From NCBI RefSeq assembly GCF_046105845.1, contig NZ_CP151004.1: a DNA stretch of 64,000 bases. One strand, 5' to 3'. Within the stretch, counting starts at the first letter, position 1, and each line of letters begins with the position of its first letter. The DNA comes from Escherichia coli (GTDB lineage Bacteria > Pseudomonadota > Gammaproteobacteria > Enterobacterales > Enterobacteriaceae). The position numbers and the translations under genes were made by a program. Under the pieces are notes generated by a model. That model saw only the letters and a list, made by a program, of their open reading frames with translations, was not told the DNA's origin and made no database searches. Below, piece by piece: positions 44,193-48,758 of the stretch.

Positions 44193-45668
44193 ATGAATAC
44201 CCAGTATAATTCCAGTTATATATTTTCGATTACCTTAGTCGCTACATTAGGTGGTTTATTATTTGGCTACGACACTGCCGTTATTTCCGGTACTGTTGAG
44301 TCACTCAATACCGTCTTTGTTGCTCCACAAAACTTAAGTGAATCCGCTGCCAACTCCCTGTTAGGATTTTGCGTAGCCAGCGCTCTGATTGGTTGCATCA
44401 TCGGCGGTGCCCTCGGTGGTTATTGCAGTAACCGCTTCGGTCGTCGTGATTCACTTAAGATTGCTGCTGTCCTGTTTTTTATTTCTGGTGTAGGTTCTGC
44501 CTGGCCAGAACTTGGTTTTACCTCTATAAACCCGGACAACACAGTGCCTGTTTATCTGGCAGGTTATGTCCCGGAATTTGTTATTTATCGCATTATTGGC
44601 GGTATTGGCGTTGGTTTAGCCTCAATGCTCTCGCCAATGTATATTGCGGAACTGGCTCCAGCTCATATTCGCGGGAAACTGGTCTCTTTTAACCAGTTTG
44701 CGATTATTTTCGGGCAACTTTTAGTTTACTGCGTAAACTATTTTATTGCCCGTTCCGGTGATGCCAGCTGGCTGAATACTGACGGCTGGCGTTATATGTT
44801 TGCCTCGGAATGTATCCCTGCACTGCTGTTCTTAATGCTGCTGTATACCGTGCCAGAAAGTCCTCGCTGGCTGATGTCACGCGGCAAGCAAGAACAGGCG
44901 GAAGGTATCCTGCGCAAAATTATGGGCAACACGCTTGCAACTCAGGCAGTACAGGAAATTAAACACTCTCTGGATCATGGCCGCAAAACCGGTGGTCGTC
45001 TGCTGATGTTTGGCGTGGGCGTGATTGTAATCGGCGTTATGCTCTCCATCTTCCAGCAATTTGTCGGCATCAATGTGGTGCTGTACTACGCGCCGGAAGT
45101 GTTCAAAACGCTGGGGGCCAGCACGGATATCGCGCTGTTGCAGACCATTATTGTCGGAGTTATCAACCTCACCTTCACCGTTCTGGCAATTATGACGGTG
45201 GATAAATTTGGTCGTAAGCCACTGCAAATTATCGGCGCACTCGGAATGGCAATCGGTATGTTTAGCCTCGGTACCGCGTTTTACACTCAGGCACCGGGTA
45301 TTGTGGCGCTTCTGTCGATGCTGTTCTATGTTGCCGCCTTTGCCATGTCCTGGGGTCCGGTATGCTGGGTACTGCTGTCGGAAATCTTCCCGAATGCTAT
45401 TCGTGGTAAAGCGCTGGCAATCGCGGTGGCGGCCCAGTGGCTGGCGAACTACTTCGTCTCCTGGACCTTCCCGATGATGGACAAAAACTCCTGGCTGGTA
45501 GCCCATTTCCACAACGGTTTCTCCTACTGGATTTACGGTTGTATGGGCGTTCTGGCAGCACTGTTTATGTGGAAATTTGTCCCGGAAACCAAAGGTAAAA
45601 CCCTTGAGGAGCTGGAAGCCCTCTGGGAACCGGAAACGAAGAAAACACAACAAACTGCTACGCTGTAA
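44193..45668 (+). CDS. xylE: D-xylose:H+ symporter (MFS sugar porter), 491 aa
   Basis: MNTQYNSSYIFSITLVATLGGLLFGYDTAVISG...; sugar-porter signature motifs. Confidence 0.97.
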   Translation: MNTQYNSSYIFSITLVATLGGLLFGYDTAVISGTVESLNTVFVAPQNLSESAANSLLGFCVASALIGCIIGGALGGYCSNRFGRRDSLKIAAVLFFISGVGSAWPELGFTSINPDNTVPVYLAGYVPEFVIYRIIGGIGVGLASMLSPMYIAELAPAHIRGKLVSFNQFAIIFGQLLVYCVNYFIARSGDASWLNTDGWRYMFASECIPALLFLMLLYTVPESPRWLMSRGKQEQAEGILRKIMGNTLATQAVQEIKHSLDHGRKTGGRLLMFGVGVIVIGVMLSIFQQFVGINVVLYYAPEVFKTLGASTDIALLQTIIVGVINLTFTVLAIMTVDKFGRKPLQIIGALGMAIGMFSLGTAFYTQAPGIVALLSMLFYVAAFAMSWGPVCWVLLSEIFPNAIRGKALAIAVAAQWLANYFVSWTFPMMDKNSWLVAHFHNGFSYWIYGCMGVLAALFMWKFVPETKGKTLEELEALWEPETKKTQQTATL

Positions 45669-45678
45669 TCTTCCTGTC

Positions 45679-45713
45679 CAGCACGCCGCGCCAGTTCGGC
45701 GTGCTGTCTTTTT
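45679..45713. terminator. Bidirectional terminator between xylE and psiE
   Basis: cagcacgccg-cgccagtt-cggcgtgctg followed by tcttttt. Confidence 0.75.
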
Positions 45714-46122
45714 ACTCCCGCTTCAGCCGTTTCGAATTACACAGCCACAGGGTGATCACCAGTAACAGGATCGCTGCCGAGTAGATCAACACATCCAGTG
45801 GCGATTTATGATCGACGATGATCAAGCGCACAATGGCGGTGATCCCAATATAGACAAAGTAACGTAGCGGGAAGTGAAAACCGGACTGAAAGTACTTCAC
45901 AATCAGCGCGATAAATTCGAAATAGAGAAAGTAAACCACCAGCCCTTCTACCAGCTCATATTTGCTGGTTTGTTCTGGCGCGAACAGCACATCAGCCAGA
46001 TGCACCGTTTCTTTGCCGAGGAAGACAACCAAAATCAGGCCGAGGCACAGCAGGCCAAGATTGAGTACGGTCTGCAAAATGGTGGAGATAAACTCCACGC
46101 GCGGACGAGAGAGTGACGTCAT
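45712..46122 (-). CDS. psiE: Phosphate-starvation-inducible inner-membrane protein PsiE, 136 aa
   Basis: [39 protein letters not shown]... Confidence 0.93.
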
Positions 46123-46336
46123 AGCAGTACCTCCTTCACAGTGGCGAGCTTCCTGTATAACGCAAAAATGTGACGGAGATCTATATTTTTTGTGTATGTT
46201 TTGTTCAGCTCAATTAAGTGGGCATCTCCCATCAACGTCGCATCTGACAAAACATACAGCCAAAAAAAATCACCCATTCAGGTGATTCCCAGCCACCAGC
46301 AATGCGCGAAAAATCGACAATGTTCCTCTGGAACAA

Positions 46337-46615
46337 ATGAAACGTAACCTGATAAAGGTGGTAAAAATGAAGCCTTATTTTGCTGCTTTGATGTTATCAG
46401 TCTCTGTTCTTCCTGCTTATGCTGGTCCGCTCGGTACTGCTGATAAAGCCGACCTACCGCAAAGCAATGTCTCCAGCCCAATGATGGCCCAGTCGCTCAG
46501 GCAACCAGACCTGCAACCGATATCGACGGACAGGAAGACAGAATGTTTTCGCCTTTACACACCAGATCGCAAACCGGGGGTGAACTGCGTTCCTGATGGC
46601 TCAACAGGCCATTAA
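46337..46615 (+). CDS. Small putative secreted protein (92 aa, or 82 aa from the ATG at 46367)
   Basis: MKPYFAALMLSVSVLPAYA looks like a cleavable signal peptide; AAGGTGG before the 46367 ATG. Confidence 0.5.
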   Translation: MKRNLIKVVKMKPYFAALMLSVSVLPAYAGPLGTADKADLPQSNVSSPMMAQSLRQPDLQPISTDRKTECFRLYTPDRKPGVNCVPDGSTGH

Positions 46616-46661
46616 GAATGAGGGTGCCAGTGAGTGCGAAAACTGGCACCTTTTCCAAGAC

Positions 46662-48758
46662 TTAGCGGAAATTGACGCTACGGTCGCTGGTCATGTCATA
46701 CAACTGGAACTTACGCCCAAGTTGCTGACCACCGTCACGCGTCAGCGGCGTCCAGCCAATTGCCGCACGGCTGCGTGTCGGGCCAGACGAGAAGAGATCC
46801 AGCGGTACAGAGACATACACGCCTTTGGTAAAGTCCCCTTCGCCGTACTCCTCTTTCGAAACATTCGTGATCGTGGCATAGCCACCCACCACCACGCCGC
46901 TATCAAAGCGTTTGGCGATCTCCAGCGTGCCGCCTTTATCCCCTGCCAGATACTGCCCGACGCTCGCTTTCACTAACACATCCTGAGCGAAAGATGGCGT
47001 CCAGTATGCGGTCAGATGTCCGGTTTTCACGCTGTAGTCGGTGAATTTCATCATATCTTTTGCGCTACGCCAGTCGCGCTGTTTAACGTAGTTGGCATCC
47101 AGACCAAACGCCCAGTTGCTGTCCAGCGGGCGATACAACACTTCTGCCCCCGCACCGCCAAACATGGTTTCGAGATAACCACCGTAGACCTGACCGTAGA
47201 AGCCGTTGCCCAGATGCTGGAAGTAGTTGGCTTGCAGGTTATTCACATAGACATCGTTCTGCACATACTCGCGCACATGGGTACGAACGCGCGGTAAGTG
47301 CGAGTCCTGCGGCGGGTTGGTGTAGTTAAACTTGTCGTAGTTGTTGGCAAGATTTGCAAACAGGCTGCCGGTGGTGAGCAGATGGTCCGTCAGCCATACA
47401 TCCGCCGTTCCCATCACGCCCAGCTGATACATGTAAAAGTTTTCCGGGCCACCGACCGACTGGTTCAGCACCGGATCGATATGGAAATCAAAGCGTGATT
47501 TGTCGATATACCAGCCCTGCTCGGTGGACTGCGGAACCACTGGCTCGACGCGTTTTTGCGCCAGCGTCGTTTCGTGGCCCAACGGCTCTCCGCCGAGATG
47601 ATTTTTCAGGCTGGCGACATCGGTTTCCGTCGTCACCTGCGGCATGTTAAGGCGATTTTCCGTAATGCGGATCGTTTTGATCCCATCCGGCAGATCGTTC
47701 ATCACGATCCGATTAGCACGGATGATCCCTTCGCGCGAATCACGATATTTCACCTGCTCGCCGGTAACATACAGCGTATCGCCTTTCGCCTGGATCTGCG
47801 GATCGGCCAGTCCGGCGTTGTATTTCAACAGCGTTAACTGATTCGCCACCACCGAGTGCTGCAAAATGGCATCCTGCGGCTGCGGTTGATATTGCGGGCG
47901 GGCGTTATCGTTGTAAGACGGGCGCAGATCGTTAAAGTTGGTGCGCAACGTAACGCCAAACATAAAGGTGTTGCCACGTTCATAGCTAAGGTTAACGTCG
48001 GCCCAATCGGTAACGCGATAAATCGCACCGACGTTAAACTTACTTTTTTGCTCCAGCTTCCCGGCAAAATCCTGCTGATAATTATTGCCTTCATACTCCA
48101 GTTTCAGGCGCAGCGGTTGCCAGGGCGTCTGGTATTCCACGCCGCCAAACAGTGAGGTCGGGCCGTGGAACATCTGGCTACCGTCGATAGATCCCGCCTG
48201 TTTGTAGCTGTTATCGCGATAGCAAAATTTATCACTGGCTGAACAGAGCGGATTTTTCACATTACCGCTGGTGCCCAGATATCCCCAGCCCAGGCCGAGC
48301 GTAAAATCGAACGGCCCCCAGGCTTTGCTGGCAACAAGATATTCCGCATCAAACAGCCCCGTACCGCCGATATCCCGCGCACCAACCGCCACTTGCGGCA
48401 GCCAGTAACTCTCTTCCCACAAACGCAGTTTGAGATCGAAGGCTTTATCTTTATACGTTTGATCACCAGAGAACGCTTCGACGCTGCTGTACTGCCGGGT
48501 GCGCACATCGGTATAGCGCAGCGTTGTTTCCAGCCACGGGAAGAGTTGCACTGAAGCTGAGTAATAACGGTACTGATCGTTATCGCGATAGTTCAAACTC
48601 AACTCCCCTTCCCGCGCCATGCGGGCGGTAGGCGTTTGTAATAATCCTACGCCACCGAAATCCGACTGCGACGGACCAATGGGCGCAGGATATGTTTCGC
48701 CGTAGCAAGCTGTGCTAATGCCCAGCGCCAGTAAGCTAAGCAGATGTCTTTTTTTCAT
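46662..48758 (-). CDS. yjbH: YjbH, outer-membrane component of the yjbEFGH polysaccharide system, 698 aa
   Basis: [20 protein letters not shown] signal peptide; beta-rich 698-aa protein; last gene of yjbEFGH. Confidence 0.9.

Follow-up and report, generated by a model that had tools for sequence, protein, structure and literature searches.

yjbT of Escherichia coli, a taxonomically restricted gene probably encoding a small exported protein

Introduction

Between psiE and yjbH of E. coli lies a short open reading frame whose predicted product starts with a signal sequence, and the question is whether this frame encodes an exported protein and, if so, whether that protein belongs to the exopolysaccharide system encoded by yjbEFGH or stands on its own. 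The window analysed is a stretch of 64,000 nucleotides of contig NZ_CP151004.1 (assembly GCF_046105845.1). Our main reading, to which we assign a probability of roughly 70%, is that the gene, yjbT, is a genuine, monocistronic and taxonomically restricted gene for a small exported protein. yjbT is among the few core genes of E. coli left without a functional clue, and a defined module within its product is a useful start. Nothing in the findings should surprise specialists and their importance in itself is small; by-products are a probable correction of the start codon, a constrained C-terminal Cys-loop and an argument against membership in yjbEFGH.

Results and discussion

Identity of the open reading frame

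The frame and its neighbours are as follows.

45712-46122, minus strand: psiE, an ORF of 136 aa with a Pfam PsiE match
46337-46615, plus strand: intact ORF, 92 aa from the first ATG and 82 aa from the second in-frame ATG at 46367
46662-48758, minus strand: yjbH, an ORF of 698 aa with a Pfam YjbH match

The ORFs of yjbG, yjbF and yjbE come after yjbH on the same strand, and xylE lies on the other side. The frame under study is convergent with yjbH, from which it is separated by 46 bp. Its product is 100% identical (92 of 92 residues) to YjbT of E. coli K-12 MG1655 (b4620), and b4620 has the same psiE and yjbH neighbours in the same orientation. The sole Pfam match of the product is PF17089, 'Uncharacterised protein family YjbT', with 217.7 bits (gathering cut-off 27 bits), E = 1.4e-65 and positions 1-92 of 92 covered; no NCBIfam model matches YjbT. 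The full-length model match, together with identity and synteny to b4620, identifies the ORF as the yjbT orthologue. Of 5426 complete E. coli genomes, 5416 contain a 601-bp yjbT region, and in 5413 at least 80% of the region is present. The ORF is yjbT (b4620), an already-known, annotated core gene of E. coli. RefSeq lists the same protein as WP_001295279.1 under the product label 'periplasmic protein', and searches of the literature for 'yjbT' and 'b4620' returned incidental mentions only.

The first-pass annotation had placed an ORF of 82-92 aa at 46337-46615, between psiE and yjbH; the coordinates are exact and both flanks were confirmed by Pfam. Its description of a small signal-peptide protein agrees with the RefSeq label, but it had missed that the gene was already annotated as yjbT/b4620/PF17089.

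Transcription of yjbT

Directional RNA-seq of K-12 placed b4620 among the hypothetical genes transcribed in all seven samples (PMC3734233). In the supplements of that study, b4620 was assembled as a transcript of its own under each of the 7 conditions, with 5' ends at U00096.2 4238085-4238100 (PMC3734233). In the window these are positions 46315-46330, upstream of the first ATG by 8-22 nt and of the second by 38-52 nt; in one sample (LB), the 5' end is downstream of the first ATG. The following elements flank the gene.

46269-46286, plus strand: inverted repeat IR1, ATCACC-CATTCA-GGTGAT, about -35 to -52 from the inferred transcription start
46286-46314, plus strand: candidate weak sigma-70 promoter, TTCCCA-17 nt-AAAAAT, read from the sequence, with 8 of 12 consensus matches
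46321-46335, plus strand: inverted repeat IR2, TGTTCC-TCT-GGAACA, at the mapped transcript 5' end
46623-46654, plus strand: terminator-like hairpin, GGTGCCAG-N12-CTGGCACC followed by TTTT, in the 46-bp gap between yjbT and yjbH

The position of the candidate promoter agrees with the RNA-seq 5' ends, and GATAAT or GAAAAT is found at the same place in the homologous loci L015 and L014. A scan for consensus promoters and terminators made no call: the candidate promoter, with 8/12 matches, is below its threshold, and the hairpin is uncalled because its loop is 12 nt long and its T-run comprises only 4 nucleotides. The hairpin has a folding energy of -19.7 kcal/mol (z = -3.7), none of 200 shuffled sequences folded as well, and a G+C-rich hairpin follows the stop codon at every homologous yjbT locus.

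IR1 has no second exact match within the window. IR2 is likewise unique there, with 0.02 occurrences expected by chance, and is conserved in 8 loci with a loop of 3-5 nt. RNAalifold on the yjbT 5' region gave no covariation support for IR1 or IR2. After inspection by eye, readings of the GGAAC motif as a sigma-E or sigma-54 element were rejected: as a sigma-E element its spacing to the TCTGAT-like element is 11-13 nt and not about 16, and as a sigma-54 element it has no GC at -12. yjbT is probably expressed from a weak promoter whose -35 adjoins the conserved palindrome IR1, and the location of IR1 beside the -35 suggests that yjbT may be controlled by a regulator.

The start codon

Databases annotate yjbT with 92 aa, starting at the first ATG. 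Three features bear on this assignment.

46337-46366, plus strand: N-terminal extension of 10 codons, MKRNLIKVVK, part of the database 92-aa annotation, found in Escherichia only and probably 5' UTR
46355-46361, plus strand: Shine-Dalgarno sequence AAGGTGG, 5 nt before ATG 46367
46367-46615, plus strand: yjbT coding sequence in its cross-genus form, 82 aa plus stop (PF17089, identity to b4620, starts of homologs)

Homologs outside Escherichia have 75-85 aa, and their start codon always corresponds to the second ATG. Kluyvera, B. izardii and the loci L004 and L014 have no upstream ATG, and in Pseudocitrobacter, Buttiauxella sp. and Shimwellia in-frame stops close the upstream frame. In addition, E. 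coli and Kluyvera share AAGGTGGTAAAAATG (in the context CTGAT-AAGGTGGTAAAAATG) without any change, and the other genera deviate from it only slightly. Since the homologs start there, AAGGTGGTAAAAATG is invariant and the upstream frame is closed or has no ATG outside Escherichia, the conserved product is the 82-aa form. By this comparison, the start conserved across genera is ATG 46367, with a predicted precursor of 82 aa, and the start codon given in databases probably lies 10 codons upstream of the actual one.

It could be argued that in Escherichia ATG 46337 is the true start nevertheless; the precursor would then have 92 aa and a long, highly basic n-region. All five Escherichia species examined retain this ATG and its frame, a CGT-to-CGC change within the extension in E. 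albertii is synonymous, most RNA-seq 5' ends are 8-22 nt upstream of this ATG and the Pfam model spans all 92 positions. However, the length of PF17089 is not independent evidence on the start, because the model was evidently built from Escherichia sequences, and a comparable ATG is missing outside Escherichia, with in-frame stops in three genera. Moreover, ATG 46337 directly abuts the IR2 hairpin and is preceded by only a weak GGAA, whereas the Shine-Dalgarno sequence of the second ATG is strong and invariant, and the one 5' end seen in LB lies downstream of ATG 46337. Although a start at ATG 46337 deserves to be kept in mind, we consider it unlikely and use the numbering of the 82-aa form in the following.

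Signal peptide and export

A signal peptide, MKPYFAALMLSVSVLPAYA, had been proposed from the sequence alone, and it is present, as judged from rule-based features and from conservation in homologs.

46367-46423, plus strand: signal peptide of 19 codons with a predicted signal peptidase I cleavage site AYA↓G (rule-based n/h/c analysis)

In MKPYFAALMLSVSVLPAYA, the n-region contains a single Lys, a hydrophobic core follows, and Ala occupies both -3 and -1 ahead of a Gly; the layout is MK / PYFAALMLSVSVL / PAYA↓G, and the top mean Kyte-Doolittle value over 9 residues is 2.43. YjbT thus combines the features of a Sec/signal peptidase I substrate, that is, a charged n-region, an h-region of ~10-15 residues and small residues at -3 and -1. 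The n/h/c pattern is kept in all 12 homologs despite divergence of the residues, with Ala or Ser at -1 and the cleavage contexts ASVFA↓I, AHA↓Q, SYA↓S, AFS↓Q, CYS↓Q and CYA↓Q.

A lipoprotein was also considered and rejected. Neither the E. coli signal peptide nor the residues directly behind it include a Cys, in Buttiauxella and Shimwellia the Cys of the signal peptide follows a Pro (AAPC, IAPC), and no homolog has a signal peptidase II lipobox, [LVI][ASTVI][GAS]C. Residues 1-19 are best described as a putative Sec signal peptide that would be cleaved by signal peptidase I after AYA. Cleavage would release a soluble periplasmic protein of 63 aa (6.8 kDa).

Selection on the reading frame

The nucleotide sequences of 13 homologous loci were threaded onto the protein alignment, and pS and pN were determined per region. 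In the last 25 codons, E. coli and the Kluyvera-like metagenomic locus L004 differ by 18 synonymous and 0 non-synonymous changes, E. coli and Kluyvera georgiana by 14 synonymous changes and 1 non-synonymous change. Synonymous sites in the C-terminal codons are saturated, with pS of 0.76-0.96 against pN of 0-0.02. The middle part has a pN of about 0.5 between genera and the signal peptide is intermediate. dN/dS of yjbT is well under 1, and the frame is open with equivalent start and stop in 6 genera. The yjbT reading frame is under strong purifying selection. The first-pass annotation had made its ORF depend on conservation of the frame; across genera the frame is indeed conserved, and by purifying selection.

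Architecture of the mature protein

The mature part of 63 aa contains 8 Pro, 6 Asp, 6 Ser and exactly two Cys, as expected from the earlier description of a Pro/Asp-rich protein with two Cys. It is divided as follows.

46424-46537, plus strand: linker, residues 20-57, rich in Pro/Ser/Thr/Gln/Asp, fast-evolving and predicted to be disordered
46538-46612, plus strand: C-terminal module TECFRLYTPDRKPGVNCVPDGSTGH, residues 58-82, near-invariant
46544-46546 and 46586-46588, plus strand: codons of Cys60 and Cys74, within the C-terminal module

TECFRLYTPDRKPGVNCVPDGSTGH is identical or near-identical from Escherichia to Kluyvera, and the most distant members retain T-x-C-x10-PG[VIL]NC[VI]PD. Twelve sequences from 6 genera share T58, C60, P70, G71, N73, C74, P76 and D77 without exception, and the spacing of the two Cys is constant at 13 residues (C-x13-C with PG[VIL]NC[VI]PD). 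AlphaFold2 runs with alignments of 6 and 12 sequences had mean pLDDT values of 50 and 56, with about 50 in the linker, and in both runs no secondary structure beyond the signal-peptide helix and no confident fold was obtained. A profile search of the PDB with YjbT gave one chance match (E = 0.85) and PHROGs gave nothing matching YjbT; altogether, a structural or sequence analogue was sought in PDB, Pfam, NCBIfam and PHROGs and none was found.

The two invariant cysteines of the predicted exported protein would be oxidised by DsbA, which would close a 15-residue loop from Cys60 to Cys74. It is tempting to speculate how the protein might work. The constrained C-terminal loop with its invariant PG-x-NC-x-PD would be the functional part and would bind a conserved component of the envelope, acting on it as ligand, inhibitor or modulator rather than as an enzyme; the disordered linker would be a spacer only. 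This picture of a periplasmic binding element on a spacer is speculative, and we would give it somewhat less than an even chance. The 25-residue Cys-loop that carries the selective constraint is in any case a concrete target for mutagenesis or pull-downs.

The same architecture could be that of a pre-pro-peptide, in which the linker is a pro-region to be removed and the disulfide-cyclised C-terminus of 25 residues a diffusible signal, toxin or inhibitor. The succession of a signal peptide, a fast-evolving middle (pN about 0.5) that is predicted to be disordered and a short, Cys-containing C-terminus (pN 0-0.02) is what such a precursor would look like. However, the residues before the module vary (DRK-TEC, DHV-TEC, SHV-TPC, LN-TQC, YN-TSC), so that no conserved processing site is seen, Pfam and the PDB gave no similarity to any toxin or peptide family, and in none of the contexts examined is there a gene for a dedicated protease or exporter near yjbT. 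Moreover, yjbT belongs to the chromosomal core genome of E. coli, in commensals as well as pathogens. We regard processing to a diffusible peptide as quite improbable.

The heat-stable enterotoxins STa and STb of E. coli are made as precursors of ~70-80 aa in which a Sec signal peptide is followed by an intervening region and then by a short, conserved, disulfide-bonded C-terminus; they have two or three disulfides and are plasmid- or transposon-borne. The resemblance is one of three-part precursor layout. In contrast to the enterotoxins, YjbT has one possible disulfide, no conserved processing site and no similarity to them detected by Pfam, and its gene is chromosomal and near-universal in E. 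coli.

A more far-reaching version would be that YjbT is the precursor of a genus-restricted, disulfide-cyclised periplasmic peptide ligand whose invariant loop of 25 residues modulates a conserved envelope protein, for example a sensor, a protease or an outer-membrane machine, and that its gene is on a self-contained 0.4-kb cassette with a palindromic operator of its own, which would have moved repeatedly between variable slots of the chromosome in Enterobacteriaceae. This is a long shot; if true, YjbT would represent a new class of small envelope regulator and not a structural protein. We return to the reading of YjbT simply as a small exported protein.

Distribution and genomic contexts

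The YjbT family comprises 14 clusters among 5.8 billion proteins, and an exhaustive profile HMM search of 1.84 billion representatives yielded 12 representatives, all of them members of the family. A scan of one genome per species (100,044 species) returned at least 5 yjbT loci, with E. coli itself not among the matches. The named hosts are Escherichia species, Kluyvera georgiana, Pseudocitrobacter sp., Buttiauxella izardii, Buttiauxella sp. and Shimwellia pseudoproteus. YjbT is a tiny family that is confined to Enterobacteriaceae. For the neighbouring PsiE, more than 2000 clusters exist.

yjbT was seen in at least five genomic contexts. These, and three comparable loci without the gene, are listed below.

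Escherichia, K. georgiana, Pseudocitrobacter and one further lineage: psiE-yjbT-yjbH arrangement (four lineages)
B. izardii: yjbT adjoins csbD, downstream neighbours variable
Buttiauxella sp.: yjbT before a DUF2767 gene
S. pseudoproteus: yjbT between a gene for an AbgT-type transporter (abgT) and a NUDIX gene, on a contig other than that of pgi-psiE
L004: yjbT adjoins GH1/PTS genes
Klebsiella variicola: slot with pgi-hexapep-GNAT-psiE, no yjbEFGH and no yjbT
Kosakonia: slot with yjbFGH-GH19-ORF-GNAT-psiE, no yjbT
S. pseudoproteus, pgi-psiE locus: pgi directly beside psiE, no yjbEFGH

In K. georgiana, a hexapeptide-transferase gene is inserted between yjbT and yjbH. A tblastn search for remnants of yjbT at the psiE loci of K. 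variicola, Kosakonia and S. pseudoproteus found none. The gene neighbourhoods differ in every context and no binding partner emerges from them.

The idea that yjbT is cargo of a mobile element was also followed and given up, as there was no match in phages and none in small or mobilizable plasmids. The only 'plasmid' matches were E. coli records of 0.66-4.9 Mb, all typed as non-mobilizable and some of them chromosome-sized.

Relation to the yjbEFGH system

Of the two roles suggested by the first-pass annotation, the first was that of an accessory periplasmic factor of yjbEFGH. In this case YjbT would be a component of exopolysaccharide secretion by the YjbEFGH (GfcABCD-like) system, for example as a partner of YjbH. 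yjbT is indeed next to yjbH in Escherichia, K. georgiana, Pseudocitrobacter and one further lineage, and both products would be envelope proteins. There is also a superficial likeness to the YjbE/GfcA-type proteins of yjbEFGH and of gfcABCDE group 4 capsule-like loci, which like YjbT are small (~80 aa), carry a signal peptide, have a low-complexity mature part and are encoded at the edge of the locus. However, YjbE is rich in Ser/Thr/Ala/Gly, has no Cys and is encoded in the same orientation as the operon, whereas YjbT has the invariant Cys-loop module and is encoded convergently to the operon and also where the operon is absent. No alignment and no similarity between YjbT and YjbE was obtained, so that paralogy to YjbE was rejected, and with PF17089 as its sole Pfam match YjbT has no homology to the Yjb/Gfc families.

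The arrangement of the genes does not speak for a common function either. yjbT and yjbH are convergent with a hairpin between them and yjbT is transcribed alone, which is incompatible with co-transcription, and in K. georgiana the two are separated by the hexapeptide-transferase gene. Across the loci examined, yjbT and yjbH do not consistently occur together: homologs of yjbT are found in four unrelated contexts, the Shimwellia, Buttiauxella and L004 genes lying elsewhere, Kosakonia has yjbFGH but neither yjbT nor a remnant of it, and Shimwellia, with yjbT on another contig, lacks yjbEFGH at the syntenic locus. Finally, the 12 YjbT representatives among 1.84 billion proteins compare with more than 2000 clusters of PsiE. 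Because of the convergent genes, the other contexts, the findings in Kosakonia and Shimwellia and the missing similarity to YjbE, an accessory factor is unsupported, and we hold it to be very improbable. The synteny with yjbEFGH that the first-pass annotation had proposed to check does not hold throughout, as yjbT occurs in other contexts and yjbFGH of Kosakonia occurs without yjbT.

The most likely reason for the location of yjbT beside yjbH is a variable cargo slot between psiE and yjbH/pgi. The psiE-yjbT-yjbH order in four lineages may still leave a little room for a loose functional link between yjbT and yjbH. The second suggestion, an independent small secreted protein, agrees with all the evidence: yjbT has its own ribosome-binding site, its own terminator hairpin, conserved upstream elements and a single-gene transcript.

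yjbT as a self-contained unit

A spurious ORF within a conserved non-coding RNA or regulatory region is hardly tenable as an explanation: conserved inverted repeats flank the ORF and yjbT is absent from the searchable, incomplete supplements of two proteome papers and one ribosome-profiling paper, which thus gave no direct evidence for the protein, but substitutions are codon-periodic, amino acids are identical despite saturated synonymous differences, the frame is open in 6 genera, Rfam gave only chance-level matches over the yjbT region even at a permissive threshold, and synonymous saturation with pN of 0-0.02 excludes both a spurious ORF and a feature that exists only at the RNA level.

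What is conserved together with the coding sequence is its immediate surroundings. In BLAST comparisons between loci of different contexts, the alignments cover the ORF with about 100 nt upstream and 35 nt downstream of it and no more, and IR1 and IR2 travel with yjbT even where the neighbour genes differ. yjbT is a self-contained unit of ~0.4 kb that reaches from the upstream inverted repeat to the terminator hairpin and is conserved between genera. A difference between strains of E. coli respects the same boundary. In the psiE-yjbT spacer, upstream of the gene, K-12 has a REP-like block of ~55 bp that the strain analysed here does not have, and this polymorphic block ends precisely at the start of the IR1 block.

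Inverted repeats upstream of yjbT

Two inverted repeats precede yjbT, the gene of a small, probably exported protein that lies between psiE and yjbH, and both are conserved in six genera:

46269-46286, IR1, ATCACC-N6-GGTGAT, upstream of yjbT
46321-46335, IR2, TGTTCC-N3-GGAACA, upstream of yjbT

Both repeats travel with yjbT into unrelated genomic contexts. Neither was recognised as a match to a known regulator motif or Rfam family, and covariation, examined with RNAalifold, was absent and hence did not discriminate between an RNA and a DNA function.

The psiE-yjbT spacer

The middle part of the spacer (46211-46263) varies among E. coli strains, as seen in comparison with K-12 and the loci L002 and L003. 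K-12 and many other strains have a spacer block about 55 bp longer that contains REP-like palindromes (GCCGGATAAGCCGCG...GGCGCATCCGGC), in place of which the window has a shorter, differing sequence. A REP-like insert is likewise present in the psiE-yjbT spacer of E. albertii. In some RefSeq records a 144-nt "hypothetical protein" is annotated within the insert. In the psiE upstream region, a CRP-like half-palindrome, TGTGACGGAGATCTAT (46169-46184), is kept in E. coli, K. georgiana and Pseudocitrobacter, probably as part of the regulation of psiE rather than of yjbT.

Variable neighbourhood and a breakpoint behind yjbT

In the csbD-yjbT pair, two Buttiauxella izardii-like contigs (L016 and L018) are 96% identical, and their homology stops about 70 nt past the yjbT stop codon. 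Beyond this point, one contig carries an epimerase/AraC pair and the other a fimbrial chaperone-usher cluster; therefore, a rearrangement breakpoint lies immediately past the yjbT terminator.

On the other side of psiE, the presence of xylE is variable. The gene (44193-45668) lies between psiE and malG in the window and in K-12, whereas psiE adjoins malG directly, without xylE, in the E. coli genome NZ_CP018957.1, which matches the window at 100% identity over the psiE-yjbT-yjbH segment. Kluyvera, Pseudocitrobacter, Klebsiella, Kosakonia and Shimwellia likewise have no xylE beside psiE. The slot from psiE to yjbH (or pgi) holds small cargo that differs between genera.

Cargo of the slot behind psiE (coordinates of each comparison locus)
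K. georgiana (L012), 6377-6832, hexapeptide acyltransferase
Klebsiella variicola (L023), 3883-4856, hexapeptide transferase and GNAT; locus without yjbEFGH
Kosakonia (L024), 3370-4848, GH19 glycosidase, 111-aa ORF and GNAT

Distribution and degraded copies of yjbT

A scan of one genome per species recovered yjbT from four Escherichia species and K. georgiana. Absent from its results were E. fergusonii, Pseudocitrobacter, Buttiauxella, Shimwellia and even E. coli, although yjbT is known from other look-ups to be present in some of these. The peptide patterns of the scan were too strict for distant family members; that E. coli was not listed was unexpected. Several database entries of the family are frameshifted or degraded (P0014, P0012, P0013, P0006, P0020 and P0047); among them are a 60-aa product in Shigella flexneri and a variant of 76 aa, Kluyvera-like, in which the first Cys is lost. 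This suggests that yjbT becomes a pseudogene now and then, or that these entries contain sequencing errors.
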